Virus record (IMG/VR): IMGVR_UViG_3300036791_000807 | Span: 1-59,374 of that record | Source: a virus | Taxonomy: Duplodnaviria > Caudoviricetes | Reading direction: 5' to 3' (one strand) | DNA length: 59,374 nucleotides | Shown: piece after piece, positions 11,208-34,701 of the stretch | Numbering within the stretch: position 1 is the stretch's first letter | Layout of the letters: every line of letters starts with the position of its first letter | The notes under the pieces: generated by a model | What the model saw: the letters and a program-made list of their open reading frames with translations, nothing else | Databases searched by the model: none | Told to the model about the DNA's origin: nothing | Position numbers and translations under genes: made by a program

Positions 11208-11850
11208 TGGGTACCCTCCAATGCTGGATCTGCGCCACCATGATTTCGAGGGCGGCGTCTAGGGTTGTCGTGATCGCCGCCGGATCCATAACATTGTACG
11301 GTGTCGCGGCCTGGAACACCTTACCGGGGAATAGCTCCTCAGCAGCTTCGCACATCTCCGCGAGATCGTCCAGGATCATGATGACGCGACTAGGCTCTAC
11401 TCTCTCCGCCAACTGAGCGTACTTCAACTCATCGAAGAGCAGACCATCGTACTCGATCCCGTGACGCCTGAGCCATTCGACTGTATCCGGCACGACGTTG
11501 TCGAGTGAGAGGTAGGGTCGAGTTGTCGTCATCCAAAGTTCAGCACTCATGCCCTTCGCCGTCTCACAAAGCTCGACCGCGCCTGGACGGATCGGCATGG
11601 TACGCTTCATACCTCCCTGTCGGTAGGCGAGCTTGATCTGCCGGTAGGTCTCTAGCTCGATCATGTAAGCACCCATGCACCATGTGCTAAACGGAATCGA
11701 GCCATCATACTGTTCCATGTTCTCGTCGGGATCATACCCCAGCCAATCCTCGGCGAAGCTCAGGAAGTGGTTGTGGTAGTCGCCTAACGTGCCATCAATG
11801 TCAATAGCTACTACTGGCCTGATGATTCGTCCGCAGTCGCTGCAGCGCAT
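11200..11850 (-). CDS. HAD-family 5'(3')-deoxyribonucleotidase-like phosphatase
   Basis: AIDIDGTL (motif I), TTRP (motif II), K and ILDD (motifs III/IV). Confidence 0.85.
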   Translation of the reverse strand: MRCSDCGRIIRPVVAIDIDGTLGDYHNHFLSFAEDWLGYDPDENMEQYDGSIPFSTWCMGAYMIELETYRQIKLAYRQGGMKRTMPIRPGAVELCETAKGMSAELWMTTTRPYLSLDNVVPDTVEWLRRHGIEYDGLLFDELKYAQLAERVEPSRVIMILDDLAEMCEAAEELFPGKVFQAATPYNVMDPAAITTTLDAALEIMVAQIQHWRVPIG

Positions 11851-21971: not shown

Positions 21972-22287
21972 GTCTCTTCTTGCCTCCTCTGAAGATTGCG
22001 AAGAGTGAACAGTCGCGTGCTGCGAACTCCCACTCTCCTTCTTCCATCGGGATGCGAACTCCATTTCTGGCTCGCCCCGCTAGGTTGCTCTGGGCGTTGT
22101 TAGCCTGTTCGGGTGAGTCAAACACCGCGACTTCGGCCCATTCGCCCGGAGTGTTAACCAACGGCGCCAGCCTGATGGCCCATGTAATCCCAGGACCACC
22201 CTTCTGAGGAAGTTCACCAACAAACGTGACCTCTTGCGATTCAATCCTGCGATTGAACCGTTCCTTTTCCTTTCGGGTTCTTGGCAT
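21931..22287 (-). CDS. hypothetical protein
   Basis: Start MPRTRKEK after an AAGGAG RBS. Confidence 0.6.
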   Translation of the reverse strand: MPRTRKEKERFNRRIESQEVTFVGELPQKGGPGITWAIRLAPLVNTPGEWAEVAVFDSPEQANNAQSNLAGRARNGVRIPMEEGEWEFAARDCSLFAIFRGGKKRRGSRSVPRVERPW

Positions 22288-22423
22288 ACCCCACTCCTTT
22301 CTGTATACGGCCAAGCTTGTGTGTGGTGGGGAGCCCAGGCGGAGGGTACCACCGACGCCCAGGCTCCCCCATCGCGCCAAGAGCAGATCCGCTGCTCGGC
22401 GCGAACTTGCACGCGCGTCGATC

Positions 22424-22693
22424 CTATTGGATCTCGCTGCGCTTCGGAAGACGACCTGCCCTAAAGCAATATGGACAAGATCTTCCAATGATCACAATCG
22501 GTTGTTTCGGCCTGGTTGGCGACTCGCGGATCAGGCGGTTGGGCCTCATCCACTCGCGCTCCGCTACCAGGAATGGTCTGCCCGCCTTGGTGCCAGGACA
22601 GTCCGCGTATCCACAGGTGACGACCAAGAAGGCAGGGAATGTCTCGCTGCGCTTCGCGGTGTACACCGGCAATCTACTCTCGATTGCTTCCAT
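22424..22693 (-). CDS. Zn-binding hypothetical protein
   Basis: CGYADC...CPYC; GGAGG RBS. Confidence 0.6.
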   Translation of the reverse strand: MEAIESRLPVYTAKRSETFPAFLVVTCGYADCPGTKAGRPFLVAEREWMRPNRLIRESPTRPKQPIVIIGRSCPYCFRAGRLPKRSEIQ

Positions 22694-22694
22694 C

Positions 22695-22793
22695 TCAACT
22701 AAACCTCCATCTGAAGATAAGTGTCAAGATGACCAGCACCAGGATGATTAGGATCAGCTTGATCCAGCCTAGCACTGGTGGCTCATCGTGCAA
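22695..22793 (-). CDS. 32-aa membrane peptide
   Basis: TTG start right after AGGAGGGTACC; MHDEPPVLGWIKLILIILVLVILTLIFRWRFS. Confidence 0.55.
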   Translation of the reverse strand: MHDEPPVLGWIKLILIILVLVILTLIFRWRFS

Positions 22794-22795
22794 TT

Positions 22796-22855
22796 GGTAC
22801 CCTCCTTATGAGACTTCGGGATGCGCAGGTCGAACCTGCGGCACCCGCAATCTCA
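22796..22855 (-). promoter_or_regulatory. stop-anchored stem + GGAGGGUACC RBS element (copy without the second hairpin)
   Basis: UGAGAUU-G-CGGG...CCCG-A-AGUCUCA followed by AAGGAGGGUACC. Confidence 0.7.
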
Positions 22856-23191
22856 CTTCTTGGCCCTACCTGGATCCTTCAGTCGAATGTCAGCGACGGC
22901 TACCGTGCGAAGCCCACCAGGATCGGTGTAGACTTGTACGAGCGTACGTGCGCGCTCACCGACAATCTCATCATCGATCTTGATTGGTCCTCGCGGCAGG
23001 AGCTTCTTGAGTGACAATACTCGACCCGCATCGTAGACTAGAGCGGGCATATGCCACATCCTGCCTGTATCCGGATTGGGTCTTTCGTCCGGCTTGAAGT
23101 CCAGCCAGATCCGGTGACCTTCCAGAAGCTGTTGAAGCTCTGAAAGGTCACCGGTCTGACTAGCTTCGGTGGCCGCCGCTATGAGGGGTTT
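22853..23191 (-). CDS. open frame, probably a -1 frameshift extension of the 23179-23697 gene (or a separate gene from ATG 23059)
   Basis: The frame stays open from 23191 but has no start codon until 23059; A-AAC-CCC slip site plus a strong downstream stem. Confidence 0.5.
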   Translation of the reverse strand, partial: KPLIAAATEASQTGDLSELQQLLEGHRIWLDFKPDERPNPDTGRMWHMPALVYDAGRVLSLKKLLPRGPIKIDDEIVGERARTLVQVYTDPGGLRTVAVADIRLKDPGRAKK

Positions 23192-23697
23192 TCAGACCGC
23201 GCAGCGCGACGCTGAGCCAGAGTGCGGGCACGTCCGCGAGGACGCGCAGCCGCCGACTTGCTCTTGGTCTTGCTGCCCGACTTCGCAGCCGACGACTTCT
23301 TGGAAGAAGCCTTGGTTGCGGTGCCGGTCTTGCGGGCCGGACCCGACTTGCGATTGCCCCGACTGGGTGCCTCGTCCGCCTCACCATTCAGGGGCGGCAG
23401 AGGAGCGCTGGCGTCTCCGCCAGCCTCCTCGTACAACTCCTTGGCACGAGCGACGGACTCGCCGATGCGAGCGGCGATCAGTTCCCAGCGGTTCCGTTCG
23501 TTGTCCCGCAGGTTCATGACCGACTTCGCGGTTGCCGGCGCACTGTCCTCTCGTCCGGAATCGACGAGTGCCTGCGAGAATGCCAGCGAGGAGATCCCGC
23601 TGACGGGCAGCCCCAACTCTTCGGCGGCTGCCGAGTGCCCGATGTCCTGCTTCTGCAGCAGTTTCACGAGCTTGTCGTAGTAATCACCAACGGCCAT
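23179..23697 (-). CDS. HTH DNA-binding protein with a histone-H1-like basic tail
   Basis: AAAEELGLPVS and RWELIAARIGESVARAKELY HTH-like segments; K/S/A-rich tail; AAGGAGGGAGC RBS. Confidence 0.7.
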   Translation of the reverse strand: MAVGDYYDKLVKLLQKQDIGHSAAAEELGLPVSGISSLAFSQALVDSGREDSAPATAKSVMNLRDNERNRWELIAARIGESVARAKELYEEAGGDASAPLPPLNGEADEAPSRGNRKSGPARKTGTATKASSKKSSAAKSGSKTKSKSAAARPRGRARTLAQRRAARSENPS

Positions 23698-23731
23698 TCT
23701 GCTCCCTCCTTTGTAGGATAACGGCCATTAA

Positions 23732-23765
23732 GGGTGAGTATATAGGTAACTCACCCCCGCGTCTA
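23732..23765 (-). promoter_or_regulatory. promoter with an overlapping palindromic operator
   Basis: TAGACG-N17-TATACT on the minus strand; inverted repeat GGGTGAGT-N9-ACTCACCC overlaps the -10. Confidence 0.65.
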
Positions 23766-23838
23766 CCCCAAATTTCCAGGGTAAACGGGAGCCATGGGGG
23801 CTCCGGGCGGTGGCAGCTGACGCCGCCCCACCCGCAAC

Positions 23839-24423
23839 TCACAGCTTCTCGAACGCGCTCCGATATGTGCAGAGGAAGTCTTCAACATCATCCGGCTCTC
23901 GATGCGAGATCGGCCGGGGCAGCTTGTTCATCGGGATGACCTTCTTCTTCCTGACGTCGATGCCGATGGCCTCCAGCCCCGCTCTTGTCCCAGCATGGAC
24001 ATAGATAGCTTCAGGCTTCAGCCCGAGGTACGCGCCGAACCTGACCGCGACATCGTAGACTGTCATCGGTCCGATTCCACTCGTCTTCAGGAACTCAAAC
24101 CCCGCATGAAGCGTGGCGAAGTCTCGCGATCTCATCAGCATCGGTAGATGACTGACCACTCGTCTGCGGTAGCGCGGCAGAGCCGGGCTGACCTTCGACT
24201 GGTGATTGTGCATCCTTCCGTTCGGTCGAATGCTCATCACCGCTCGATGGGCAGCGACGACCGGCGTTGGAGCTTCAGCGCACCAGGCCGGGATGTTGTC
24301 TGAGTAGCGACGAATGGGAGAGTCAGGATCGTCTCGCCTCCAGACGAAGTCACGCCACAACGCGTGCATGCTCGTCATCGGTTCCAGCGGTGGATTCTGC
24401 TCCCACACTCGCTCAATGTTCAT
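23839..24423 (-). CDS. HhH-GPD / DNA-glycosylase-fold protein
   Basis: SGIGPMTVYD HhH motif, YVHAGT, C-terminal VEDFLC. Confidence 0.6.
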   Translation of the reverse strand: MNIERVWEQNPPLEPMTSMHALWRDFVWRRDDPDSPIRRYSDNIPAWCAEAPTPVVAAHRAVMSIRPNGRMHNHQSKVSPALPRYRRRVVSHLPMLMRSRDFATLHAGFEFLKTSGIGPMTVYDVAVRFGAYLGLKPEAIYVHAGTRAGLEAIGIDVRKKKVIPMNKLPRPISHREPDDVEDFLCTYRSAFEKL

Positions 24424-24424
24424 T

Positions 24425-24496
24425 GGTACCCTCCTTTGGTGAATCGACAGGATTGTCGATTCGGAGGGGCAGCTAGGCTGCCCTACCGGATCGTCA
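24425..24496 (-). promoter_or_regulatory. two-state stem + GGAGGGUACC element
   Basis: Stem starts on the upstream UGA; alternative hairpin GAAUCGACA-AUCC-UGUCGAUUC. Confidence 0.75.
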
Positions 24497-25465
24497 ACTA
24501 CCGATCTGCTTCCCGGATCCCGGCTTGACGCCGCGACCGGGGTGGCTGCTGATGTTGGCCCGATTGCCGGCCGACTGTCCGCTGTTGTAGGCAGCGGTGT
24601 CGAACTTGCGGCTGTTGCCTTTCACCAGTGTCCCGCGCTGTCCCATATCCGGGAACATCTGTCTCATGAACTCGCGGTTGATATCGCGCTGCTCGCGCAG
24701 AACGAGATCCATCCCGGTTCCATCGACCTTCACCTTGTTCTGAGCGTCACGCATCTCGCTCAGCCGCGAGGCTACCCGCGTTGCGAAGCCGTCCGCGAAG
24801 TTGCGGCGGTACGTCTTCCAGTTGGCGTAGTCCTGCGGGACATTCATGCGCTTGCACCAGCGGCGGTACGCATGAGCGGTCAGATGCCGAGCCTTGTCTG
24901 TCGTGACGTCCGTATGGAAGCCATGATCCTGCATGATCTTGGCCGTCTCCAGCCAATTCCATCCAGCTTCCCTGAACGTCTGAAGGTTCCGATAGTAGTC
25001 CTTGTCCGGATCGTAATGCGGACGAACCTTCTCGATCAGCTGCGTCATGAGAGATGAGAAGAGAAGCTCCATGTACGCCAGGTCGGTCTCGGTGCCGATC
25101 ACCGGAATGACGTTGGACACATACTGCTTCCGTTCTCCGCTGTAGTGCTGCTTGTGGAAGACGAGGATGCAGTTCGTGTACGATCCCACCGAGTAGAACA
25201 GACGCCACAAGGCGTCGTGGATCTCGGGGAATGGTCCGGACTCAAAGGCGAAGCCGTAATCAAAATCCTTGACAATCGGCTCGCGCTCGGAGATCCGGCC
25301 TACCTGATGCTGCTGAAGCTCCCACATCTCGATGCGGTACTTCATCATCAGTTCCTCCGCCTTGGCGAAGAAAGCGTCACGCTCACCTTCATGCGTGGAC
25401 GATTCCGCCTTGGCCAGGAGTCCCTGAATCTTGCGCATCAGGTCGTCCTTCCTGGTTTCTTTCAT
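24494..25465 (-). CDS. DUF2786-domain protein
   Basis: KIQGLLAKAES..ERDAFFAKAEELMMKY; RNFADGFA..RL; AYNSGQSAG. Confidence 0.8.
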   Translation of the reverse strand: MKETRKDDLMRKIQGLLAKAESSTHEGERDAFFAKAEELMMKYRIEMWELQQHQVGRISEREPIVKDFDYGFAFESGPFPEIHDALWRLFYSVGSYTNCILVFHKQHYSGERKQYVSNVIPVIGTETDLAYMELLFSSLMTQLIEKVRPHYDPDKDYYRNLQTFREAGWNWLETAKIMQDHGFHTDVTTDKARHLTAHAYRRWCKRMNVPQDYANWKTYRRNFADGFATRVASRLSEMRDAQNKVKVDGTGMDLVLREQRDINREFMRQMFPDMGQRGTLVKGNSRKFDTAAYNSGQSAGNRANISSHPGRGVKPGSGKQIGS

Positions 25466-25467
25466 TT

Positions 25468-25560
25468 GGTACCCTCCATTCGGCTTTCGGAACATACACC
25501 ACGTAGGTTCCAGACCGCGCCCGCCACCGCAGAGGCGGGCACGACCTGCGACCTACTTGG
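25468..25560 (-). promoter_or_regulatory. two-state stem + GGAGGGUACC element
   Basis: GUAGGU...ACCUAC stem on the upstream UAG; alternative GGAAC...GUUCC hairpin. Confidence 0.7.
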
Positions 25561-25861
25561 ACGCGATGCTACCAACTTCGTATGAAGCGACGACCCATTC
25601 ATCGGCGTCGTTTTGAGGATCAACTGCGAGCGCGTACCAGTGGCCGCGCCAGCCGATATCCTCATTCCGATCACGCATCTTCCAAGCATGTTCACCGATC
25701 GGATCCCAACTCTCGGCGAGCGAGTCCCAGATGTGTTCGACTCGCAACATCATCGGGATTCCTTCGGTGCCTTCCATGAGCTTCAGGTAGACGATGTCAC
25801 CCACCTTCGGCTTGGGCAGGTTGTCGTGCGGGTCGAACGGCTGAGGACTGTCCTCAAACAT
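25553..25861 (-). CDS. hypothetical protein
   Basis: Start MFEDSPQ overlaps the upstream stop region. Confidence 0.6.
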   Translation of the reverse strand: MFEDSPQPFDPHDNLPKPKVGDIVYLKLMEGTEGIPMMLRVEHIWDSLAESWDPIGEHAWKMRDRNEDIGWRGHWYALAVDPQNDADEWVVASYEVGSIASK

Positions 25862-26105
25862 CGAGCCGCAGGAGCCCTTCTTCAACCAGAAGAGCCTCAT
25901 AGGCAGCAAACACTGCCTTCTTTGTTCGTCCCGGATTGGGTCTACCAACCCCAACCAGCAGTTGACGAGCTTGCTTGGCAGGGCTGACCCGCCAGGTCGG
26001 GCCATCCGGCTTCTCGACCTCCAGCTTCAGCTTGTGATAGATCTGAAGCAGAGCGAACGCCTGAATGGCATGGGGGTTGTCAAGGATGATCGGTTGTTCG
26101 CTCAC
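25854..26105 (-). CDS. hypothetical protein
   Basis: Coupled ORF in the early operon. Confidence 0.65.
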   Translation of the reverse strand: MSEQPIILDNPHAIQAFALLQIYHKLKLEVEKPDGPTWRVSPAKQARQLLVGVGRPNPGRTKKAVFAAYEALLVEEGLLRLDV

Positions 26106-26341
26106 AGGTCCTCATCCTCGTCGAACGACGACGACTCCCTGACAATGTAGATCAGGTCGGTCCGGAACAGGTGCTCCTTGGAGGAGTTGTACCCATTACG
26201 CGGGAAGAACTTGATCCACTGGAAGCCATGTTCGTCCTTGAACACGATAGCGCCGTCGGCGTAGAAGTGCTCATCCTTGAAAACGACGATCAGCCGGTAG
26301 TCCAACTGGATATTGTCCTCTGAGAGAGGATCTTCGTCCAT
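26102..26341 (-). CDS. hypothetical acidic protein
   Basis: ATG directly after AGGAGGGTACC. Confidence 0.7.
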   Translation of the reverse strand: MDEDPLSEDNIQLDYRLIVVFKDEHFYADGAIVFKDEHGFQWIKFFPRNGYNSSKEHLFRTDLIYIVRESSSFDEDEDL

Positions 26342-26342
26342 T

Positions 26343-26414
26343 GGTACCCTCCTTTGGTCCGTGCTCAGTCATCTGAACACGAGGCAGGGATTTCTCATCC
26401 CTGCTTCCTGCTCA
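26343..26414 (-). promoter_or_regulatory. two-state stem + GGAGGGUACC element
   Basis: UGAGCA-G-GAAGCAGGGAU..AUCCCUGCCUC-G-UGUUCA; alternative GUGUUCAG-AUGA-CUGAGCAC. Confidence 0.8.
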
Positions 26415-26684
26415 GCCTGAAGGTCGCAGATCGTCTGCGGCATCCGGGTCATCCTGAAGTTCCAGGGGCAGACTCGCGATCTCCTGCATGATGTTGAAGT
26501 AGAGGAACAACATATGCTGGTTGAGAAGGGAGATGTCGGTCAGTGTCGCTGCGTTCAGAAAGTTCTGAAGCGCAACGCCAGCTGCCTCCGACGAGACGAC
26601 GAAGCCGCCGCCATCATGATCGATGGCGTGAACAATTCTACCGTCGTCCATGATCTGTTGATGGTAGAGTGCTCTGGCCTTCAT
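26412..26684 (-). CDS. hypothetical protein
   Basis: Coupled ORF; its stop sits in the stem. Confidence 0.65.
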   Translation of the reverse strand: MKARALYHQQIMDDGRIVHAIDHDGGGFVVSSEAAGVALQNFLNAATLTDISLLNQHMLFLYFNIMQEIASLPLELQDDPDAADDLRPSG

Positions 26685-27067
26685 GTTCTCACGCTCCAGT
26701 CGTCGTCCTTGCGCTCGTGCGTCTTGCCACGAGCGAAGAAGTCCTCCAGAGCATCGACAATCGTGTCGTGGTATTCACCCCACGAGCACGTGTCCACGAT
26801 CTGGTAGCCTCCGGTCGCCAGTGGCGAGTCGCTGGTCACCCAGCGATCCCAAGTCGCAAACGACTGCTGTGACTGCGGGCAGAGGCAGAGCACGATGGAC
26901 TGACGCCTGACGACGTTGCCGTTGTCATCCGTCTGCTCCGCGTAGACGTTCTCATCGATGATGATCGTGCCATTCGGGAGCTTCTGCCCAGGCTTCTTGG
27001 GGAAGCGGCTCCTATCGAGATCCAGCGGGATCTCAGACCGCTCGCCCAAGTAGGCGAACTCTTTCAT
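26681..27067 (-). CDS. hypothetical protein
   Basis: ATG after AGGAGGGTACC. Confidence 0.7.
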   Translation of the reverse strand: MKEFAYLGERSEIPLDLDRSRFPKKPGQKLPNGTIIIDENVYAEQTDDNGNVVRRQSIVLCLCPQSQQSFATWDRWVTSDSPLATGGYQIVDTCSWGEYHDTIVDALEDFFARGKTHERKDDDWSVRT

Positions 27068-27068
27068 T

Positions 27069-27142
27069 GGTACCCTCCTGTTCGGTCTGAAGCCAGGATT
27101 GACTTCGGCGCAGGGTTGCTTTCACAACCCTCGCCGCAATCA
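27069..27142 (-). promoter_or_regulatory. two-state stem + GGAGGGUACC element
   Basis: UGAUU-G-CGGCG...CGCCG-A-AGUCA; alternative GAAGUCA-AUCC-UGGCUUC. Confidence 0.75.
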
Positions 27143-27421
27143 CCTGAGCTTAGCTACCTCATAGTGAGGCTTGATGTACTTGGCCAGGTATGCACCGCTC
27201 GACTCGGCTCGCGCCAAGGCGTTCGCCCGTTGTCGGCTGACGCCGACATAAGCGTAGCGGCTGCCATCAGCGAACTGGACGACCATCGTTTTGTTCCCGT
27301 TCTGGGGCCATCCAACCCAGTCGATATTGCTGCTTTCGACTCGGCGGATATTGAGCTTGATCGGCCCGGCTTCGGAGATGATCGTGTGCTCGTCCTTCGG
27401 CTCCCATTCACTGAGAGGCAC
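27140..27421 (-). CDS. KTSC-domain protein
   Basis: VESSNIDWVGW..VQFADGSRYAYVGV..AESSGAYLAKYIK. Confidence 0.85.
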   Translation of the reverse strand: MPLSEWEPKDEHTIISEAGPIKLNIRRVESSNIDWVGWPQNGNKTMVVQFADGSRYAYVGVSRQRANALARAESSGAYLAKYIKPHYEVAKLR

Positions 27422-28230
27422 TACTTCGCTCCCTCGATGTAGCGGATCTGGAGCTTGCCGGTCTTGCGACCTCGGTTGTACATCTCGCAGATGTCCCGTG
27501 CCATCCAGTACATACGCGGGTGCCGCGAGTTGTACGCCTTGTCCTCGGCCCGACCGAGCAGGACTTGCGGGTTCTGTCCAGCAAGTATGTCGGTCAACCA
27601 GGCCATGTCCACGTCTTCGTCGCCAAAGCTCTGGAAGAACTTGCCGAGTCCACGAATCAACTCGCCTTCCTTGCCTTGCTTGCGGCCGAAGAAGCAGGCG
27701 CGCAGGACATGCAACGTTGGACTGAGGCTCTGCTTCCGCGCCAAACTACTCATGCGGTAAGCATCCTCGACGGCACGGATCGCCTGGAGCATGTTCTCCT
27801 GGCCTGCGCCGATGCCGAGCTTGTAGTCTTCCGACTCGACAATCCGATTGATGTCCATAGCCTCCCTGTTGCCGGTGACCAGGAGTGCGCGGAACTGGTA
27901 GAACGGGTGTACGCTGCGGCGATTGCGATTCTTCTTGTAGAAGAACATCGCCTCATCCGCGAGCGACATCCCCTTGTACACTGCGCACCAAGCTGCGTTC
28001 TTGAACTTCGTGCAGGCTTGGTAGCGCTGTGCTCCATCGAGGATGGCGTGTGTCCCGTTCTTCCGTTCAGCTACATCCAGCGCACCGACAAGAGTCTCGT
28101 CGAATTCAGCGATCAGCTTCTCGACAAAGACTTCCTGGGGTGGCCTCTGATATCGCAGATCGACTATAAGGTCATCGAGCGATATCAACTCGACCGTGAA
28201 CGGCCAATTGTTCACGATTCTTGTTGCCAT
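27421..28230 (-). CDS. ParB/Srx-like (DUF6551-type) protein
   Basis: LIVDLRYQR...ILDGAQR...EAMFFY.KN; start re-called to the ATG after AGGAGGGTACC. Confidence 0.75.
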   Translation of the reverse strand: MATRIVNNWPFTVELISLDDLIVDLRYQRPPQEVFVEKLIAEFDETLVGALDVAERKNGTHAILDGAQRYQACTKFKNAAWCAVYKGMSLADEAMFFYKKNRNRRSVHPFYQFRALLVTGNREAMDINRIVESEDYKLGIGAGQENMLQAIRAVEDAYRMSSLARKQSLSPTLHVLRACFFGRKQGKEGELIRGLGKFFQSFGDEDVDMAWLTDILAGQNPQVLLGRAEDKAYNSRHPRMYWMARDICEMYNRGRKTGKLQIRYIEGAK

Positions 28231-28232
28231 TT

Positions 28233-28303
28233 GGTACCCTCCTTTCGGGTCTGGACATGATGTCCGGGCGGCGCAGCTTGGTGTCTGCGTCCGCCGCACA
28301 TCA
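28233..28303 (-). promoter_or_regulatory. two-state stem + GGAGGGUACC element
   Basis: UGAUGU-G-CGG...CCG-G-ACAUCA; alternative GGACA-UCA-UGUCC. Confidence 0.75.
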
Positions 28304-28537
28304 GGTTCGTTCCTTCTCGTCCAAGAGGACGATGACACTGACTTCTCCGGCGATGAAGGCTTCATACGAGGCTGTGGCCTCAGCTTCTGTCGCGTAGTAG
28401 CAGTTGACCTTGCCGAACTCGTCCATGAACTCCAGACGAATTGTCTCGTCTGGATCTCCTGGTCTGTACCACTTGACTCGCCTGGAGTCTGGCTTCAGCG
28501 GCCGGTCACTCTGCCAGCTTTTGTGATACGCTCTCAT
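28301..28537 (-). CDS. hypothetical protein
   Basis: Coupled ORF. Confidence 0.6.
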   Translation of the reverse strand: MRAYHKSWQSDRPLKPDSRRVKWYRPGDPDETIRLEFMDEFGKVNCYYATEAEATASYEAFIAGEVSVIVLLDEKERT

Positions 28538-28731
28538 CGATTGCTCGGCGGGTTGTTCGCGAGGTCGTGAGCAGCCGCATCGTCTTCTGCCGGGTTGCGT
28601 GCGAGTCGATTCTCACCGACCCATCCACAAGCATCGCAGTGAGCGACATAGCCGACGAAGTTGTTGGCCACATTCACAACTCGACTTACTTCAGCGAGAT
28701 GGTAATCGTAGCCGACGCCGATGTCAGTCAT
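28534..28731 (-). CDS. hypothetical protein (CxxC)
   Basis: Coupled ORF containing HCDACGW. Confidence 0.6.
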   Translation of the reverse strand: MTDIGVGYDYHLAEVSRVVNVANNFVGYVAHCDACGWVGENRLARNPAEDDAAAHDLANNPPSNR

Positions 28732-29087
28732 GACTTCCTCAACTTATGACGGATCTCGGCCCGCTTGGCGAGGTATGTCCGAGCGCTGCAGTCTTGGTTC
28801 TCATAGAACCAGGGCTGCAACTCCTCTTCGATGTCGCTCTCCAGGCTGCTGATTGCCATATCGGCTTCGGCCTTGCCGTCGTTGAGACCTTCGGCATAGG
28901 CCAAATCATGAGTGATCTGGACGAGCTTGACGATGCCGTCGGTATCGTCCCACCACTCTTCGGGTAGGTGATCATCCGGTGCATGGTCAATCAAGACTTC
29001 CCAGAAATGTTCTTGCCGGAAGTCCTCTGGCCGGTTGCCAGGGACCATGGATTCTGAGACCCCTGGCGGTAGGTTTGAGCCTGTCAC
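28728..29087 (-). CDS. hypothetical protein
   Basis: N-terminal NLPPGV..VPGNRPED, a motif often seen in phage early proteins. Confidence 0.65.
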   Translation of the reverse strand: MTGSNLPPGVSESMVPGNRPEDFRQEHFWEVLIDHAPDDHLPEEWWDDTDGIVKLVQITHDLAYAEGLNDGKAEADMAISSLESDIEEELQPWFYENQDCSARTYLAKRAEIRHKLRKS

Positions 29088-29269
29088 GGTGTCACCATAT
29101 AGCCACCAGTGAACCGTGAGACGATGTGACCATCAACCGTCACGCCGTCCTCGGCGATGGCTTCCACGACAGCGTCGAGGTCGTCATACGCCCGATCAGC
29201 AACCTCAACGATTCTACAATCCTTGAGTGCCGAGTAGGTCTTGCCATCAGACAAAACCATTACATACAT
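29084..29269 (-). CDS. hypothetical protein
   Basis: ATG after AGGAGGGTACC. Confidence 0.65.
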   Translation of the reverse strand: MYVMVLSDGKTYSALKDCRIVEVADRAYDDLDAVVEAIAEDGVTVDGHIVSRFTGGYMVTP

Positions 29270-29272
29270 ATT

Positions 29273-29347
29273 GGTACCCTCCTTTCGTCCATGTTCAGTT
29301 TATCTGAACACGAGGCAATCCGGGTGACCCGGACTGCTTCCTGCTCA
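29273..29347 (-). promoter_or_regulatory. two-state stem + GGAGGGUACC element
   Basis: UGAGCA-G-GAAGCAGUCCGGG..CCCGGAUUGCCUC-G-UGUUCA; alternative GUGUUCAG-AUAAA-CUGAACAU. Confidence 0.8.
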
Positions 29348-29551
29348 GAGCCTGGAGACGATCTTGATTGGCTTCTCGCCAATCGAGCCATCCTCCTGCT
29401 CTGTGACCTCATCGACGACAACGGTCATCAGCAAGCTATCGTTCTTCTGCTGTTCGATCCTACATGAGAATCGCAACTCACTTCTGAACCAGATATCAAC
29501 AATGCTGAGATCGTCGTCGAGATCGACGGTGTAGTGAGAGACCTCGGTCAT
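29345..29551 (-). CDS. hypothetical acidic protein
   Basis: Coupled ORF. Confidence 0.6.
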   Translation of the reverse strand: MTEVSHYTVDLDDDLSIVDIWFRSELRFSCRIEQQKNDSLLMTVVVDEVTEQEDGSIGEKPIKIVSRL

Positions 29552-29919
29552 TAGAAGCCCATCAGGTTCATGAGGTCGTCCTCGGTTGCGCCGATCTCGT
29601 CCAGCCGCTTGTTGGCGGTCTCATCGTCAACCAGGCCGGTCTCGATCTCGACCATGAGAGCTTGAAGCTGAGCTTTCTTGGTCGGCCTTGCTTCCGGCTC
29701 AGCCTGGTCCTCTGTGATCCAGAGTTGGCCAGAGCCGGTGCCGAGATTTGGACTGGCTCGGTAGAGCTTCCAGTGCGTCTCGCAGCCGTTGGCCCAAGGC
29801 CCCATGATCGTTGCGAAGTCGTACGGGCCTGGCGTTCCATCCTCGCAGAAGTTGCAAGCAGGGATAGACGAGACTAGGATGACTTCGTGCGGAATCAGCT
29901 TCGGCATGTCAGTCAACAA
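29551..29919 (-). CDS. hypothetical Zn-binding protein
   Basis: CNFC..YDFAT..GPWANGC..H. Confidence 0.65.
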   Translation of the reverse strand: MLTDMPKLIPHEVILVSSIPACNFCEDGTPGPYDFATIMGPWANGCETHWKLYRASPNLGTGSGQLWITEDQAEPEARPTKKAQLQALMVEIETGLVDDETANKRLDEIGATEDDLMNLMGF

Positions 29920-30181
29920 CCCAGCCGTCAGCCTGAATGGCCTTGACGTCGGCGTAGACGATCTTCTTGCTTTCGTCCTTCATGTCGATTGTGCTGTACA
30001 TCGACTGCAGGAAGACCGTTGTCAGATGCCCTTCGACGGCCATCATGACGCCGACCTCGATCTGACCTTCCCACTTGGGATCGCTCCGCTTGACGGGCAG
30101 ACGCGGCCAGTAGGGCCACTCTATCGGAGAGGACATCATTTCCATGTCCTTCTCCGCGCCGTACATTGGCGTTAGTGCCAT
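29909..30181 (-). CDS. hypothetical protein
   Basis: ATG after AGGAGGGTACC; WPYWPRLPVKR...GWVVD. Confidence 0.7.
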   Translation of the reverse strand: MALTPMYGAEKDMEMMSSPIEWPYWPRLPVKRSDPKWEGQIEVGVMMAVEGHLTTVFLQSMYSTIDMKDESKKIVYADVKAIQADGWVVD

Positions 30182-30254
30182 GGTACCCTCCTTTGGCCGT
30201 GTTCAGGTTATTCTGAACACGAGGCAACCGTTCGTGACGGCTGCTTCCTGCTCA
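30182..30254 (-). promoter_or_regulatory. two-state stem + GGAGGGUACC element
   Basis: Same lower stem as the 26343 and 29273 copies with a different upper stem (GCCGU..ACGGU). Confidence 0.8.
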
Positions 30255-30437
30255 GATGACGCGAAGTTCATCCATTACAACTTTATACTCGATGCCGTAG
30301 CGGGTGACGATAACTGCGTCGCCTGTACTTTTGCTAACGGCTTCACCTTCCCATTGAGCATGAATGTGTCTGACCTTGGAGCCGACGTAGATCGGCTCCA
30401 GGTCAGCGTCATACCCTATTGAGGAGTCTTGCGGCAT
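30252..30437 (-). CDS. hypothetical small beta protein
   Basis: IYVGSKVRH pattern; start uncertain. Confidence 0.5.
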   Translation of the reverse strand: MPQDSSIGYDADLEPIYVGSKVRHIHAQWEGEAVSKSTGDAVIVTRYGIEYKVVMDELRVI

Positions 30438-30693
30438 TGCCAAGTGCCTCCCGCTTGAGGCGGTGGACACTGTAGGTATGCGTATTGACGTGACCGCGAT
30501 GTCCCTTCACGACGTACTTGTTACGCAGGGAGTCATCTTCGGTATGGCAACCGTGAGTCTCGATCACCATCACGTCCTTGCCGTTCTTCTGAATCGCCGT
30601 GCCCCAGACCGGCGGCCAACCCTCGATGAAGTATTCCTCGATGGTGTAGCCCAACGCGGCGAATGCATCGCGATGTCTTTTGCGAGTTGCCAT
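30409..30693 (-). CDS. hypothetical protein
   Basis: Coupled ORF. Confidence 0.6.
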   Translation of the reverse strand: MATRKRHRDAFAALGYTIEEYFIEGWPPVWGTAIQKNGKDVMVIETHGCHTEDDSLRNKYVVKGHRGHVNTHTYSVHRLKREALGNAARLLNRV

Positions 30694-31238
30694 TACTGGT
30701 CACCTCGGCAGACCGGGCCAATGCCCAGTTCTCTCGATGTCTCGTCTGTGAGAGTGCGACCGCAGACATAGCAGCGGCCGATCTCGCGTCCGAACCTGGG
30801 TCCGGCATCGTCGTCCTTTTCGATGGCTGTGAGAATCCGCAGCCGCTCGGCGAGGTTCTGAACCGGCCAACGAGCATCGCTCGCCCATACATCGACAAAC
30901 GTCTTGCTGTGCCCGTTCTTGATCGAGTAGAACATCAGCGTGCCATCCTCTTTCTCGATGGCGTAGCGTCCGTCAGCGACCTGCGGCCAACCCTTCTGGG
31001 GTGAACCGGCCTGCTTGTCCTTCGGCTTCCAGGGCAGAGCGACGAGTTGCTCGATGACCGAGCTTGCTCGCCGCTTCGGCACTGTTGCGAAGTCCGTATT
31101 GCAGAGCCAGCTGATCTGCTCCTGCGTCAAGCTGGAGAGATCCTTGCCATCCCGCAATGCACTCATGTAGCTTATCTGAGGCTCTGTTGCGAGCGGTTCC
31201 TCATTTCTGAGGTGGTCTGGTATTGCAGACCTCTTCAT
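30693..31238 (-). CDS. DUF6011-domain protein
   Basis: GRCYVCGRTLTDETSRELGIGPVC. Confidence 0.8.
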   Translation of the reverse strand: MKRSAIPDHLRNEEPLATEPQISYMSALRDGKDLSSLTQEQISWLCNTDFATVPKRRASSVIEQLVALPWKPKDKQAGSPQKGWPQVADGRYAIEKEDGTLMFYSIKNGHSKTFVDVWASDARWPVQNLAERLRILTAIEKDDDAGPRFGREIGRCYVCGRTLTDETSRELGIGPVCRGDQ

Positions 31239-31240
31239 TT

Positions 31241-31312
31241 GGTACCCTCCATTCGGTCCGCACTCATTATTGAGTACGAGGAGGCCATCTTGCGATGGCT
31301 ACCTCCTACTCA
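31241..31312 (-). promoter_or_regulatory. two-state stem + GGAGGGUACC element
   Basis: UGAGUA-G-GAGG..CCUC-G-UACUCA; alternative GUACUCA-AUAA-UGAGUGC (covaries with the other copies). Confidence 0.8.
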
Positions 31313-31408
31313 GGCCTTTTTGGCGGCCTTGACCATTGCTGCGCCGACGTTGCCGAAGTTCGACTGCTTCGGATGGATGATCTGGTCGGCGATCTTGTTC
31401 TTCGTCAT
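31310..31408 (-). CDS. 32-aa basic peptide
   Basis: Read manually: MTKNKIADQIIHPKQSNFGNVGAAMVKAAKKA; bracketed by two elements. Confidence 0.65.
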   Translation of the reverse strand: MTKNKIADQIIHPKQSNFGNVGAAMVKAAKKA

Positions 31409-31411
31409 TTC

Positions 31412-31478
31412 GGTACCCTCCTTGTAATCGTGCCCAGATGAGCACGAGGCAACGGGGGATGCCCGTTGCTTCCTGCTA
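31412..31478 (-). promoter_or_regulatory. two-state stem + GGAGGGUACC element
   Basis: UAGCA-G-GAAGCAACGGG..CCCGUUGCCUC-G-UGCU; alternative CGUGCUCA..UGGGCACG. Confidence 0.75.
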
Positions 31479-31556
31479 CCGAGCGGCTATTGCGAGCCAG
31501 GCGAACACAATCGTGAGCCACGGGGTCATAAGGCAGATCCACATGACATCGGTCAT
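31476..31556 (-). CDS. 26-aa membrane peptide
   Basis: Read manually: MTDVMWICLMTPWLTIVFAWLAIAAR. Confidence 0.5.
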   Translation of the reverse strand: MTDVMWICLMTPWLTIVFAWLAIAAR

Positions 31557-31729
31557 GACTCGTTCAATCCGAACGCCGTTGGGTCGGACTCGACAACGTC
31601 GAGATCGACGACGTCACCTTCCTTGAGGTTTGGGTGCTTCTTCGGATCCAACGTTCGGACTTCGTTGAAGCCGTCCTTGACGAAGATAACTTCATCGCGG
31701 ACCTGGATGACGGTCGCGTTGTACGTCAC
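31553..31729 (-). CDS. hypothetical small OB-like protein
   Basis: GTG start overlapping the upstream TGA; LKEGDVVDL. Confidence 0.55.
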   Translation of the reverse strand: MTYNATVIQVRDEVIFVKDGFNEVRTLDPKKHPNLKEGDVVDLDVVESDPTAFGLNES

Positions 31730-31875
31730 GAGATGCGGCCCATCATGAAGTCGCCATACCAGCGAGGCATGCTCGTCCACTTGATGACGCCGAAGTGGCT
31801 CGTGAGCGTGCGGCTGTTGAGGACGCGCTTCTGGATGGGGCGCTTGGTCGCGACCCTGCGGTGATGAACTCTCAT
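31726..31875 (-). CDS. 49-aa basic protein
   Basis: Read manually (MRVHHRRVATKRPIQKR...) after AGGAGGGTACC. Confidence 0.6.
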   Translation of the reverse strand: MRVHHRRVATKRPIQKRVLNSRTLTSHFGVIKWTSMPRWYGDFMMGRIS

Positions 31876-31878
31876 TTC

Positions 31879-31947
31879 GGTACCCTCCTTGTATTGGCAG
31901 CCTTTTGGCTACCGGGATGTCGCTCGGTGAGCGACTCCCGCTAGTCA
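31879..31947 (-). promoter_or_regulatory. two-state stem + GGAGGGUACC element
   Basis: UGACUA-G-CGGGA..UCCCG-G-UAGCCA; alternative GGUAGCC-AAAA-GGCUGCC. Confidence 0.75.
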
Positions 31948-32166
31948 ACTAGCCTTGAGCTTCGGGTTGATCCTGCCGAGCGCGGCGTTGATCTTGCCGA
32001 GCGTATGCTCGTGGTTATCAACTGCCTCGTCGATCAACATGGCCGGAATGCCGTTCTTGGGTAGCTTACGTTTTGACGCTTTTGCGTCCTTGATCCTGGC
32101 CTCGATGAGAGACCTGATGTTGAGAAGGTCAAGCGCGTCGAGCGTAATGCTCGTCTCTTTGTACAT
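31945..32166 (-). CDS. hypothetical protein
   Basis: ATG after AGGAGGGTACC. Confidence 0.7.
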   Translation of the reverse strand: MYKETSITLDALDLLNIRSLIEARIKDAKASKRKLPKNGIPAMLIDEAVDNHEHTLGKINAALGRINPKLKAS

Positions 32167-32169
32167 TTC

Positions 32170-32243
32170 GGTACCCTCCTTATTTTGATAGCCGGTTGAC
32201 TACCGGGCGGCATCGCTTGGTTATCGATGACCGCCGCTAGTCA
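32170..32243 (-). promoter_or_regulatory. two-state stem + GGAGGGUACC element
   Basis: UGACUA-G-CGG..CCG-G-UAGUCA; alternative GGUAGUC-AACC-GGCUAUC. Confidence 0.75.
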
Positions 32244-32510
32244 CGACTTGATCGACTTGATCCAGTCAAATATCGAGCGAACTGCCGCTCCGATGTCGTT
32301 CTCCAACTCCATCGCAGCGTCGCCGCCGGTCTCGGTATGGGGCTCGTACAACTCCCAATCGTTGCCTCTTCCCATCGCAGAGTAGAGCTTGCCGTCGCGT
32401 TCTTCCCAACGGATCTTGCCGTACTCGGCATCGTTCGAGGTGACTTCGATCCATCCGTCGGTCAGGTCGATCTCGATGCCTAGCAGATATGAAGTAAATG
32501 GCGTCTTCAT
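32241..32510 (-). CDS. hypothetical acidic protein
   Basis: Start MKTPFTSY overlaps the upstream stop. Confidence 0.6.
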   Translation of the reverse strand: MKTPFTSYLLGIEIDLTDGWIEVTSNDAEYGKIRWEERDGKLYSAMGRGNDWELYEPHTETGGDAAMELENDIGAAVRSIFDWIKSIKS

Positions 32511-32905
32511 TCGCTTTTGGCCTCGTTGTAGTCCGCGAGCAACTGCTCGACATTGTAACCGTACGGATGGAACCCGAGGTCCCATTGCGCGTTGAAGGAG
32601 CGGCGTAGCACCGGCTCAAGCAGATCGCAGCCGGCATACGCAACCCAAGCGCCTTCTTTGGGGTTCTCGGTCTCGTCGATGATCGCCGAGATCCAATCGC
32701 GGATCTCCTTGAGCATGTCAAGATCGTTCTTCTTGAGTCCGCCCTCATCGCGGATCGTCGTCATACCCGAGAACGGGTATTGGGCGGCTGCCATGAGGCC
32801 GCTTCCCGGTTGCGAATCGCGATATTGATCTGAGCCTACCTCGTTGCCGAGGTAGTTGTCGAGCGCCCATTTCTTCACTTCTTGAGGTAGCTCCTCGATC
32901 TTCAT
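32507..32905 (-). CDS. hypothetical protein
   Basis: Start MKIEELPQEVK after GGAGGGTACC. Confidence 0.7.
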   Translation of the reverse strand: MKIEELPQEVKKWALDNYLGNEVGSDQYRDSQPGSGLMAAAQYPFSGMTTIRDEGGLKKNDLDMLKEIRDWISAIIDETENPKEGAWVAYAGCDLLEPVLRRSFNAQWDLGFHPYGYNVEQLLADYNEAKSE

Positions 32906-32908
32906 TTT

Positions 32909-32979
32909 GGTACCCTCCATTTCGGCTTTTCGCACTCGGTTGAGTACGAGGAGGGGCGGATTTGCCGCCCTACCTCCTA
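32909..32979 (-). promoter_or_regulatory. two-state stem + GGAGGGUACC element
   Basis: UA-G-GAGG..CCUC-G-UA; alternative CGUACUC-AACC-GAGUGCG. Confidence 0.7.
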
Positions 32980-33270
32980 GTCTCCGATGTGCGCGAGGCA
33001 CAAGTGTTTTGAACCTTTCTTCACTTGCGCTCTCGCTTTACATCTCGTTCCGCCTACTTGGATCATCAAGGTGTAATGCGTTCCGTCCTTCCGCTTGCGC
33101 CGGATCGGGACTTTCTTGCCGCCCTCGACATGAGCGCAGATTGAATTCGGAAGCCGCTCGGACGGCTTGTTCTTCCGTCCAACGAACTTCGGAGCCATCG
33201 GGCTAAGTTGCCCTCTTGGCGTTACGTCCGCCTTGATCTGCGCGCGGAGCTTTCTTGTCGCTTTGTCCAT
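32977..33270 (-). CDS. basic Cys/His protein, first gene of the early operon
   Basis: C..H / C..C..H residues, very K/R rich; AGGAGGGTACC RBS. Confidence 0.7.
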   Translation of the reverse strand: MDKATRKLRAQIKADVTPRGQLSPMAPKFVGRKNKPSERLPNSICAHVEGGKKVPIRRKRKDGTHYTLMIQVGGTRCKARAQVKKGSKHLCLAHIGD

Positions 33271-33271
33271 C

Positions 33272-33348
33272 GGTACCCTCCTTTTTGAACGGGGATCCGT
33301 TCATCCAGCGGGGGTTTCGCGTTCGCGATTTGCCCGCTCGATGAACGG
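33272..33348 (-). promoter_or_regulatory. two-state stem + GGAGGGUACC element (leader copy)
   Basis: CCGUUCAUC-G-AGCGGG..CCCGCU-G-GAUGAACGG; alternative UGAACGG-AUCC-CCGUUCA. Confidence 0.75.
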
Positions 33349-33802
33349 AGGGATGACGTCGGGATGACGCCTTCCCTCCGTTCGGCCGTAAGGAGGGGGT
33401 ACCAATCCCCTCAAGTCCGCCCGTAGCTCCCTGCGATGTACGGTTGCGCGTTTCTCTCTCCTTCGGTTCGCGTCCTCATCCTCCGTTACTCGGTTCTTCA
33501 AGAGTTCTTTTCACGGCCCTTTGGTGGCGGATTGTCTACCGCGCTCGCTCGCCTCGGAGTACGCGGCCCCGATGTTGTCGAGGGCGCTACGTCCGGACTT
33601 GGGTTCTCGTTTTCAAAGATCGGCGATCTTTGTAGCTCGGATCTAACCTCTTCCGCCAACTTTCGGCGGCCCTCGCGTCCCGGCGTTTCAACCTAGCTTG
33701 AAAGGATTCGGGTCTCTTCCCGCACATCCGTACCTAATCATCTTTCGGCGGTTCTATGCGGTAGTCGGGGGTTCTCGGGCCTCGCGTGGCGAGGACTTGT
33801 CG

Positions 33803-33831
33803 AGTATGCCCTACCGGGTATCGGGGGTCTA
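33803..33831 (-). promoter_or_regulatory. possible early promoter
   Basis: TAGACC-N17-CATACT on the minus strand. Confidence 0.4.
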
Positions 33832-33931
33832 CGCGCGACGAAATGTCGTCCTTTTTCGGGGCGACTCGCGCGGATCCAAGTTTTCAAAGTTCGGGGTTCC
33901 GGGGCGTCCTCGGGAGGACTCCCCTACGGGG

Positions 33932-33960
33932 AGTCTACCGGAATCAATACGTGACGTCTA
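33932..33960 (-). promoter_or_regulatory. early leftward promoter
   Basis: TAGACG-tcacgtattgattccgg(17)-TAGACT on the minus strand. Confidence 0.65.
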
Positions 33961-33999
33961 GTCGATCAACTACTGAGTTTCGCGTGTGGCGGGAAAGCT

Positions 34000-34490
34000 T
34001 GAGTTGGTTGTGAGAGAGGCTGAAAATGTGGCAAATGTGGGTGTTTCGACATGAATTGTCGTCCTTTACACACGATTGTCGTCCTTTTTGGTGGGTGTTA
34101 CGTGGTCAATATACACCCTCATCTAGCTTCTTTGACTTGATATGATATGGATCAGACGATTTACACGTTCATGTGGTCATTAAAATGCCGGTTTCGCAGG
34201 CTTCTGATGTCTTGAGTTGTCGCTCGGGCTGGTCACATTGACATGAGTTGTGATGTGGGGTGGGGGTCTGGTTCTGTCACATGTCAAGTCATTGGACACG
34301 CCTCGGCTGGTCGAGGTGTCGCATGACTTGAGTTGTGACGCTCGACCATGGCCGAGGCGATGGTTGAACAGCCGTCTGGTCCTTGTCGGGCGTTCAATGT
34401 TCACCCGCATGGTCATTCAATTGCCAGTTTTGCAGGCTTCTGATGACTTGAGTTGAGCGTTGAGTTGAGTTGACTTGAGTTGTCACGGGC
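34000..34490. repeat. TG-rich non-coding tract with a 46-bp direct repeat and TGAGTTG iterations
   Basis: 34174-34219 and 34410-34455 match at 41/46 positions; TGAGTTG occurs near 34213, 34244, 34329 and clusters at 34448-34482. Confidence 0.75.
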
Positions 34491-34701
34491 CCAAGCCTCA
34501 CGCCGCCAAACCATCTCAAGCCCCGAACCATTTCAACTCAAAACAATTCGCGCGGCAAAACATCTCGACGCCAAATCAACCTCGCGCGAACTAAACGAAA
34601 GTCTAGTAAAACCCCCCGTACGGGGGAGGCGGCTACGGACTCCCTACCGGTACCCTACGGTCGTAGGGCGGATCCGCCGCCCCGAGTAAAGGAGAAAGAC
34701 G

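Follow-up and report, generated by a model that had tools for sequence, protein, structure and literature searches.

Stop-anchored, covarying RNA junctions in front of an invariant ribosome-binding site in the leftward early operon of an actinophage-like virus

Why does one early viral operon repeat the same ribosome-binding site (RBS) in front of fourteen gene cassettes, and what is the role of the structured RNA that precedes each copy? The question is raised by the window analysed here, which is the complete IMG/VR virus record IMGVR_UViG_3300036791_000807 (59,374 bp); the record carries direct terminal repeats. The minus-strand genes of the window span from approximately 34 kb down to approximately 4 kb, and the first 10.5 kb of this leftward block is an array of junctions, in each of which the RBS is an exact copy of the 10-mer GGAGGGTACC. 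When the reading frames are followed by hand, each of the 14 copies stands in front of a cassette that holds one to four genes, and within the cassettes the genes overlap as ATGA, GTGA or TAATG, without ordinary intergenic junctions. The portal of the virus has its best matches, within a phage collection, in Gordonia, Arthrobacter and Mycobacterium phages at approximately 40% identity, and megablast and blastn searches of the region against the same collection give no nucleotide match to named phages; it is therefore treated as an uncultured actinophage-like virus. The repeated elements are best explained as standardised intercistronic RNA junctions of a long leftward early operon, working in the sense transcript.

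The 14 positions given in a preliminary description of this DNA are the low ends of exact minus-strand copies of the 10-mer. The record contains 15 exact copies on the minus strand and one on the plus strand, and 14 of the copies fall in the early ORFan array. With up to one mismatch allowed, 20 matches are found against 2.89 ± 1.81 expected, and none of 100 shuffles reaches 20. Between the end of an array copy and the start codon, which is ATG for 13 copies and TTG for one, there are 0–3 nt; this places the GGAGG core 5–8 nt before the start. The energy for opening the 10-mer averages 3.8 kcal/mol, compared with 6.5 kcal/mol (median 5.3) at 25 starts without this start-associated sequence (SAS). 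A 6-bp palindrome, GGTACC, is situated inside every copy of the motif, and any two copies could pair over these 6 bp. A full-text search for the 10-mer returned no phage-genomics paper among the matches listed, as judged by titles and abstract openings.

Read from 5' to 3', the predicted junction is constituted by the upstream stop codon, an imperfect stem of 15–22 bp (state A), a segment that would form a second hairpin (H2), an A-rich linker of 5–13 nt and the RBS GGAGGGUACC (Table 1). The upstream gene's stop codon is situated at the start of the 5' arm in all 13 copies that have an upstream gene, as first reported; the first paired nucleotide is nucleotide 1 of the stop in 12 of them and nucleotide 2 in one. 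The copy at 33272, which heads the operon and has no upstream gene, still possesses the three-way complementarity. The long stems are GC-rich and strong (−25 to −39 kcal/mol), and the distance from the stop to the RBS is 57–65 nt in 11 of the 13 window copies. Approximately 7 nt separate a purine–purine mismatch from the base with which the stop begins. The predominance of G·G at this position, tallied earlier with G·A in two copies and C·A in one, is closely reproduced by the automated fold of the 13 window copies, which gives G·G in eight and spreads the others over five types, once each (G·A, C·A, A·C, A·A and A·G). The stems do not end inside the next RBS, as had been described; the elements stop short of the Shine–Dalgarno sequence, in the A-rich linker, which is unpaired and always lies behind H2.

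The 3' arm of the long stem has a second partner. When the first 13 nt are masked, 13 of the 14 copies form the downstream hairpin H2, of 5–10 bp, which confirms the alternative pairing of the 3' arm. Against 1000 shuffles of the downstream tail, H2 stands out at p ≤ 0.013 in 12 of these 13 copies, the remaining one being the copy at 25468 (Table 1). Twelve copies possess a stop codon as well as H2, and in these the energies of state A and of the H2 state (state B) lie −3.3 to +5.4 kcal/mol apart. The sense strand folds more stably than the antisense strand in 11 of the 14 copies, and 29 of 480 pairs are G–U; both features favour a function in sense RNA rather than in DNA.

The two helices covary among the copies and their relatives. 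In the window, the own 5' arm is the best partner of the 3' arm in 12 of the 14 copies, and the own tail is the best H2 partner in eight of 13 and among the best four (of 14) in all 13; since the sequences differ between the copies, such copy-specific pairing amounts to covariation among paralogues. RNAalifold recovers H2 from a plain MAFFT alignment, with compensatory changes in all seven pairs. Scanning IMG/VR for the motif, for which AAAGGAGGGTACCA retrieves the relatives, yields seven further viral contigs with arrays of the same 10-mer; a search of viral contigs with the DUF2786 protein gave no confirmed relative. All 85 exact copies of the eight phages were also passed through an automated pipeline, which finds, in 70, an H2 of at least 5 bp sharing at least 4 nt with the 3' arm of the long stem. 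H2 beats shuffles at p ≤ 0.05 in 62 of the 85. A long-open-reading-frame (ORF) stop lies within −4 to +6 of the stem base in 58, an undercount, as automated stop detection accounts for 11 of the 13 window stops verified by hand.

A covariance model built on seven window copies, with a structure that comprises the upper stem and H2 and leaves out the lower stem, matches 62 elements of the eight phages at E ≤ 0.01, and every one of them lies on the strand of the array. All 14 window copies are the top 14 matches of the model in the window; seven of these are training copies, four others score E ≤ 4.5e-5, and the copies at 33272, 22796 and 25468 follow with the values in Table 1. In the alignment, the lower stem is paired in 80.1% of 307 cells, compared with 67.0 ± 1.5% after shuffling (none of 500 as high), and pairing falls to 29–48% when the partner is slid by 1–3 columns; double-sided changes occur in 45 cells against 17.2 ± 3.7. 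H2 is paired in 81.5% of 460 cells, compared with 55.7 ± 1.6% (0 of 500) and 30–40% when slid, and its double-sided changes amount to 124 cells against 41.2 ± 6.4, a count that leans towards H2 because the alignment was fitted to it. The earlier remark that pairing is kept while the sequence varies is thus borne out by covarying helices across 62 elements of eight related viral contigs. As alignment columns 88–94 serve both helices, two mutually exclusive pairings are both under selection. In the relative G004, the orthologue of the element at 24425 carries a changed base that is mismatched in state A and paired in H2, where its partner has changed too.

This double conservation bears on the view of the junctions in which they are passive insulators that do not switch: the hairpins would keep intergenic RNA from pairing with the RBS and shield it from Rho and nucleases, and the overlap of the helices would have no function. 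The somewhat greater accessibility of the 10-mer than of control RBS windows and the constant presence of the unpaired A-rich linker speak for such a role. However, both helices sharing the same 7–9 nt covary in the 62 elements, and the overlap is kept in 70 of the 85 copies and in 10 of 11 junctions of a cluster M mycobacteriophage. If both pairings were not selected for, the conservation of both overlapping helices would be difficult to account for, and purely passive insulation is accordingly rated unlikely.

The reading as simple terminators, raised in the preliminary description, fails: the stretch 22000–35000 has 16 terminator-like sites, which include none of the 14 stems, and the sequence that follows them is A-rich, not U-rich. 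A modified version would regard them as leaky factor-independent terminators without U tracts, the "I-shaped" kind reported for actinobacteria and for the early region of phage phiC31, or as attenuators in which translation prevents termination. The stems are indeed strong and GC-rich and are situated in an actinophage-like early region, but no T run lies behind any of the 14, and with fourteen terminators over 10.5 kb the operon could hardly do without an antitermination system, of which none is seen. Neither H2 nor the invariant RBS would have a role left, and this version is very improbable. As for promoters, none of the eight sigma-70-type promoter-like sites of the region lies inside the 14 elements. 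Rfam searches of the whole window at gathering score give no match, and at E ≤ 5 the stretch 22000–34800 gives three unrelated matches (E 1.9–4), none on an element; no known ribozyme, riboswitch or antisense family, self-cleaving ribozymes and C4 antisense RNA included, therefore fits. A switch that gates the Shine–Dalgarno sequence directly was likewise dropped, since masking the 5' arm raises the opening energy of the RBS in some copies and lowers it in others.

The cassettes between the junctions are shuffled. Several early genes are common to the eight phages at 65–80% nucleotide identity and stand in different orders: in the window the DUF6011 gene comes ahead of the DUF2786 gene, and the reverse order is seen in the six relatives with matches to both. 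Homology between the window and G004 continues through the junction at 24425 and resumes approximately 930 nt further on in G004; a single RBS copy of the window thus corresponds to two copies in G004, with an additional cassette between them. Given this homology break at an RBS copy and the extra cassette, the junctions are the seams of the mosaic. A role at the level of DNA could be drawn from the same facts, with the junction ends acting as recombination sites that shuffle early cassettes between co-infecting phages; the homologous genes are reordered among the eight phages, and a recombination role has been proposed for the promoter–stem-loop cassettes of T4-type phages. Recombination, however, needs sequence identity and not covarying stems, the upper stems are unrelated between copies, and the G–U pairs together with the strand asymmetry point to RNA. 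It is more plausible that the shuffling follows from the repeats than that they exist to bring it about, and recombination as the function is quite improbable. The junctions are not promoter–stem-loop cassettes of the T4 type themselves, as they hold no sigma-70-type promoter and have only the cassette shuffling in common with them.

How a two-state junction might work in the transcript is viewed against two established facts: imperfect stems between the cistrons of T7 and SP82 early mRNAs are cleaved by RNase III, and bacterial mRNAs gain protection from hairpins at their 5' ends. RNase III-type processing, the model of the preliminary description, is tentatively placed first, by a small margin. 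State A would form first during transcription and serve as a substrate for host RNase III, a double-strand-specific endonuclease; a cut near the conserved purine–purine mismatch would free the 3' arm, which would then fold into H2. The upstream cistron would keep a structured 3' end, each downstream cistron would receive the same 5' hairpin, linker and RBS, and the expression of each cassette would be insulated from its neighbours. Such insulation would matter because related phages exchange cassettes at exactly these junctions. The length of the stem suits a double-strand-specific nuclease, the fixed purine–purine mismatch could direct the cut, and H2 starts at the mismatch and would cap the new 5' end. 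Element 1 keeps the three-way pairing without an upstream gene and therefore fits a trigger that is independent of the ribosome. Several points weigh against processing. The copy at 22796 is the sole array copy without H2, and the predicted equilibrium share of state A ranges from 0.03 to 1.0 between copies, with no uniform set point. No RNase III gene was found in this virus, so that the enzyme would have to come from the host, and a stem of 15–22 bp that contains two or three mismatches is rather short as a substrate of RNase III. Moreover, the start of the stem on the stop codon is not explained by processing and points to the ribosome.

In the ribosome-driven alternative, the terminating ribosome would throw the switch: it would unwind the first approximately 9–12 nt of the 5' arm, and the freed 3' arm would fold into H2. 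The two closed hairpins would bring the next RBS near the terminating ribosome, or would mark the upstream cistron as translated, and successive cassettes would be translationally coupled across the spacer of approximately 75 nt. This alternative best explains the position of the stem, which starts at nucleotide 1 of the stop in 38 of the 59 elements with an identified stop in the eight phages and within nucleotides 1–3 in 52. It also suits the lower stem of approximately 6 bp, the first mismatch being located at +6/+7 from the stop in 34 of the 59 elements (and being G·G in 33). Furthermore, approximately nucleotides +1 to +8 have the 5' arm of H2 as their partner and form the stretch that a terminating ribosome, whose footprint size is established, would hold open, and the ATGA and GTGA overlaps inside the cassettes mean that coupling is already habitual in this operon. 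As the sole trigger, the ribosome is contradicted by element 1, and the opening energy of the RBS shifts inconsistently when the first 13 nt are masked. A ribosome-driven switch is nearly as likely as processing and thus a serious possibility, though, like processing, a rather unlikely one.

The invariance of the RBS itself may have a separate cause. The single plus-strand copy of the 10-mer, at 22341–22350, reads GGUACCCUCC on the minus strand and is displayed in the apical loop of a hairpin (Table 1), where GGUACCCUC(C) is the exact reverse complement of the 10-mer. The hairpin lies between the minus-strand genes 22693–22424 and 22287–21931, 446 nt downstream of the last array copy, and borders the early ORFan array and the replication genes. 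The basis for this intergenic placement is the stop at 22424 together with the RBS and ATG at 22287; stop-to-stop open stretches at the inverse-copy hairpins carry no information on coding, being too long in all frames of these GC-rich genomes. Each sufficiently complete relative contains one inverse copy, always downstream of the array: it is exact in G001, G004, G005, G006 and G007 and has a single mismatch in G002, where it was found by a one-mismatch search, and G003 is a fragment that ends before this point (loci of the relatives: L022, L026 and L116–L119, in G001, G002 and G004–G007). A reversed-pattern control in exact-match searches gives no match in any genome. In all seven phages the inverse copy is situated in the loop of a 12–16 bp hairpin whose stem sequence differs between phages, and no start codon lies behind it on the other strand. 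The predicted duplex between loop and RBS, of 10–11 bp, has −19.3 to −20.9 kcal/mol, compared with opening costs of approximately 4–6 kcal/mol for the loop and approximately 3.8 kcal/mol for the RBS.

From these predicted energies and the conserved placement, a control circuit of RNA with RNA can be put forward as a possibility, with some hesitation: the loop would pair with the 14–15 tagged RBSs. Once transcription reaches the hairpin, the loop would pair with the fairly accessible RBSs, and early translation would be shut off or timed; the contribution of the two-state stems would be a uniform and accessible setting of every RBS for this pairing. Such a circuit would explain why the RBS is conserved beyond its Shine–Dalgarno core. 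A further imperfect complement of the 10-mer stands in the leader (Table 1). This motif is found in five of the eight phages, the window and the leaders of G001, G002, G003 and G005, in the form UGGUACC(C)CCCUCCU(U), the DNA examined of the other three possibly not reaching far enough upstream. In G001, G003 and G005 the motif follows a TATAAT-like hexamer. The leader motif may mark the start of the early transcript.

Table 1. Junction elements and associated features of the window
Feature	Coordinates	Strand	Stem or structure	H2	Start codon or context	Covariance-model E
Element 1	33272..33347	minus	first in operon, no upstream gene; long stem CGUUCAUCG.../...GAUGAACG	GAACGG-AUCC-CCGUUC (p = 0.001)	GGAGGGUACC, then ATG 33270	0.0037
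Element 2	32909..32979	minus	from UAG of gene 33270-32977	present	10-mer, then ATG 32905	
Element 3	32170..32243	minus	from UGA of gene 32510-32241; UGACUA/UAGUCA, G·G at +7	GGUAGUC/GGCUAUC	ATG 32166	
Element 4	31879..31947	minus	from UGA of gene 32166-31945	GGUAGCC/GGCUGCC	ATG 31875	
Element 5	31412..31478	minus	from UAG of 26-codon ORF 31556-31476	CGUGCUC/GGGCACG	ATG 31408	
Element 6	31241..31312	minus	from UGA of gene 31408-31310; UGAGUA/UACUCA, G·G at +7	present	ATG 31238	
Element 7	30182..30254	minus	UGAGCAGGAAG...CCUCGUGUUCA type	CGUGUUCAG/CUGAACACG	ATG 30181	
Element 8	29273..29347	minus	type as element 7; from UGA of gene 29551-29345		ATG 29269	
Element 9	28233..28303	minus	UGAUGU/ACAUCA, G·G at +7	5 bp	ATG 28230 (DUF6551 protein)	
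Element 10	27069..27142	minus	UGAUU/AGUCA, G·A mismatch	GAAGUCA/UGGCUUC	ATG 27067	
Element 11	26343..26414	minus	UGAGCAGGAAG type		ATG 26341	
Element 12	25468..25555	minus	longest; from UAG (UAGGU/ACCUA)	interrupted, p = 0.075	ATG 25465 (DUF2786 protein)	0.2
Element 13	24425..24496	minus	from UGA of gene 25465-24494	9 bp, GAAUCGACA/UGUCGAUUC	ATG 24423	
Element 14	22796..22855	minus	from UGA of gene 23059-22853	none	TTG 22793 (32-codon hydrophobic ORF)	0.047
15th exact 10-mer copy	11210..11219	minus	without typical two-state stem		before TTG start of ORF 11207-10911, upstream of DnaE gene	0.22
Stop-anchored pair of adjacent hairpins	23775..23841	minus	after gene 24423-23839		no 10-mer behind	
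Inverse-copy hairpin ("anti-SAS")	22328..22369	minus	14-bp GC-rich stem; −33.2 kcal/mol, z = −2.7			
Leader motif UGGUACCCCCUCCUUA	33389..33404	minus	imperfect 10-mer complement with two extra C		approximately 110 nt upstream of first copy	

The proteins of the window include a DnaE-type polymerase, a primase–helicase, an SNF2 helicase and a PD-(D/E)XK nuclease; the portal is Mu-like, and proteins with DUF2786, DUF6011 and DUF6551 domains are also encoded. A Pfam scan of 20 small early proteins gives one match (a KTSC domain) and 19 proteins without a match, and no candidate RNA-binding factor is among the 20. Two very short hydrophobic ORFs on the minus strand belong to the cassette system, 31476–31556 (26 codons) and 22695–22793 (32 codons), the latter with its own 10-mer and TTG start. 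Upstream of the array, 33350–34700 constitutes approximately 1.35 kb between the divergent gene blocks, without convincing genes. Read by eye, it contains several ACAACTCAAG(T/A)CA-like words, AAAGGACGACA(A/T)TT and CGGTAGGG/CCGTAGGGG. These words could be iterons or operators, and the stretch possibly holds an origin or early promoters. Other hairpins exist in the block: at 23095–23181 (minus strand) a hairpin of approximately 32 bp (−53.7 kcal/mol, z = −8.3) follows the stop of gene 23697–23179, with no 10-mer after it. Behind the double hairpin at 23775–23841 lies a promoter-like site at 23765–23737 (TAGACG-17-TATACT), the only one near the array on this strand, and behind that site a different RBS (AAAGGAGGGAGCAGAATG) precedes the ATG at 23697. 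A second transcription start may exist inside the block at 23737–23841.

Start-associated repeats and stem-loops of mycobacteriophages have been recorded since 2011–2014, and their role is called unknown in the accessible parts of that literature. The window and its seven relatives present the clearest anatomy so far, with covarying exclusive helices, a stop anchor, a fixed mismatch and a constrained RBS spacing. A descriptive repeat is thereby converted into three testable mechanisms, namely processing, a switch coupled to termination, and the control of a common RBS by antisense pairing. Two features are added, a bistability that is supported by covariation and has its anchor on the stop codon, and a conserved complement of the common RBS that is displayed in a loop; with them, these systems become experimentally tractable. 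If the junctions insulate the cassettes, they would be a natural counterpart of the insulator parts of synthetic operons, and would help to explain how early genes of actinophages are freely shuffled without loss of expression.

Among known systems, the early operon of T7 and the RNase III sites of SPO1/SP82 possess imperfect intercistronic stems of approximately two helical turns with an internal mismatch, as do the junctions here. A site of the T7 type is an imperfect intercistronic stem of approximately 20 bp, and state A, of 15–22 bp with mismatches at a fixed distance, corresponds to it. There is no sequence similarity to the T7, SPO1 and SP82 sites. To our knowledge, the T7 sites are not anchored on a stop codon and have neither a conserved alternative hairpin nor an invariant RBS behind them.

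For the inverse copy, the nearest likeness is the c4 antisense RNA of phages P1/P7, the C4 family of Rfam. In both cases, the RNA belongs to the transcription unit of its target and displays loops complementary to ribosome-binding regions. In contrast to c4, the hairpin here would act with a single loop on a motif common to 14–15 genes, lies downstream of its presumed targets and has no Rfam match.

In cluster K mycobacteriophages, a 13-bp SAS is present at 11–19 non-structural genes; it combines a Shine–Dalgarno core with conserved bases unable to pair with rRNA, lies 3–9 nt upstream of the starts of this subset of genes in one orientation, and its role is still called unknown in the available portions of the reports (PMC3203893, PMC11373665, PMC12699233). 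The 10-mer is alike in being asymmetric and invariant, with a Shine–Dalgarno core and bases without an rRNA partner, and in lying a few nucleotides before starts in one orientation, with a strong preference for ATG and a single opposite copy away from gene starts. Its sequence, GGAGGGTACC, falls outside the cluster K consensus 5'-GGGATAGGAGCCC with up to two deviations allowed. The extended start-associated sequence (ESAS) of cluster K is, in the accessible text, an imperfect inverted repeat of 17 bp whose sequence is conserved; deviations from it lend no support to pairing in RNA, and the ESAS is now interpreted as a promoter or operator (PMC3203893, PMC11373665). Compared with the ESAS, the stems here vary in sequence, covary and lack promoter-like hexamers.

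Four K1 phages are described, in the part of the source available, as carrying a single SAS each in the opposite orientation and not at a gene start (PMC3203893), and the antisense logic may extend to subcluster K1. Anaya (cluster K1) contains 16 forward copies and one inverse copy of its own SAS consensus. The inverse copy (one mismatch) is located downstream of the last forward copy, and its complement GCCUCCUAUC makes up the 10-nt loop in a hairpin that is predicted between gp96 and gp97 (L120 31845–31905; approximately 59,845–59,905 of the record). The loop complement is kept in five of eight cluster K records, altered in Ekdilam and absent in Keshu and SirPhilip. As the site in Anaya coincides in part with a TTGACC hexamer, it could be a component of a promoter of the ESAS type. 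The parallel between the inverse copy in the window and the inverse SAS of cluster K is suggestive, not general.

The closest structural counterpart is found in cluster M mycobacteriophages, for which stem-loops upstream of the conserved repeats CR3/CR4 are described in the available part of PMC7953290. In Estes (MT657341, cluster M), the leftward genes of the right arm are separated by junctions of 75–110 nt, which contain a stem from the stop codon, a hairpin that reuses its 3' arm and, directly in front of the gene's ATG, the conserved repeat CGGAGAAGGGA. The pipeline used above gives the overlap in 10 of 11 of these junctions and H2 at p ≤ 0.05 in nine of 11. We provisionally take the repeat CGGAGAAGGGA to be CR3/CR4. 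It differs from the start-proximal repeat GGAGGGUACC of the window, and host and phage lineage differ as well. The covariance model from the window finds no Estes element at E ≤ 0.01, and no inverse copy of its own repeat exists in Estes (no forward and 14 reverse matches at up to one mismatch). In approximately half of the lower stems of Estes (L128 18900–25870) and of the window group, an SD-like (Shine–Dalgarno-like) GGAGG or GGGAGG follows the stop and is paired with CCUC(C) of the 3' arm. In some copies the lower stems themselves are alike, UGAGCAGGGAGG...GUGUUCAG in Estes and UGAGCAGGAAG...GUGUUCAG in the window, with G·G in the same place. Strongly supported as a real feature, the junctions constitute a new variant of the described but unexplained start-associated repeats and stem-loops of actinophages.

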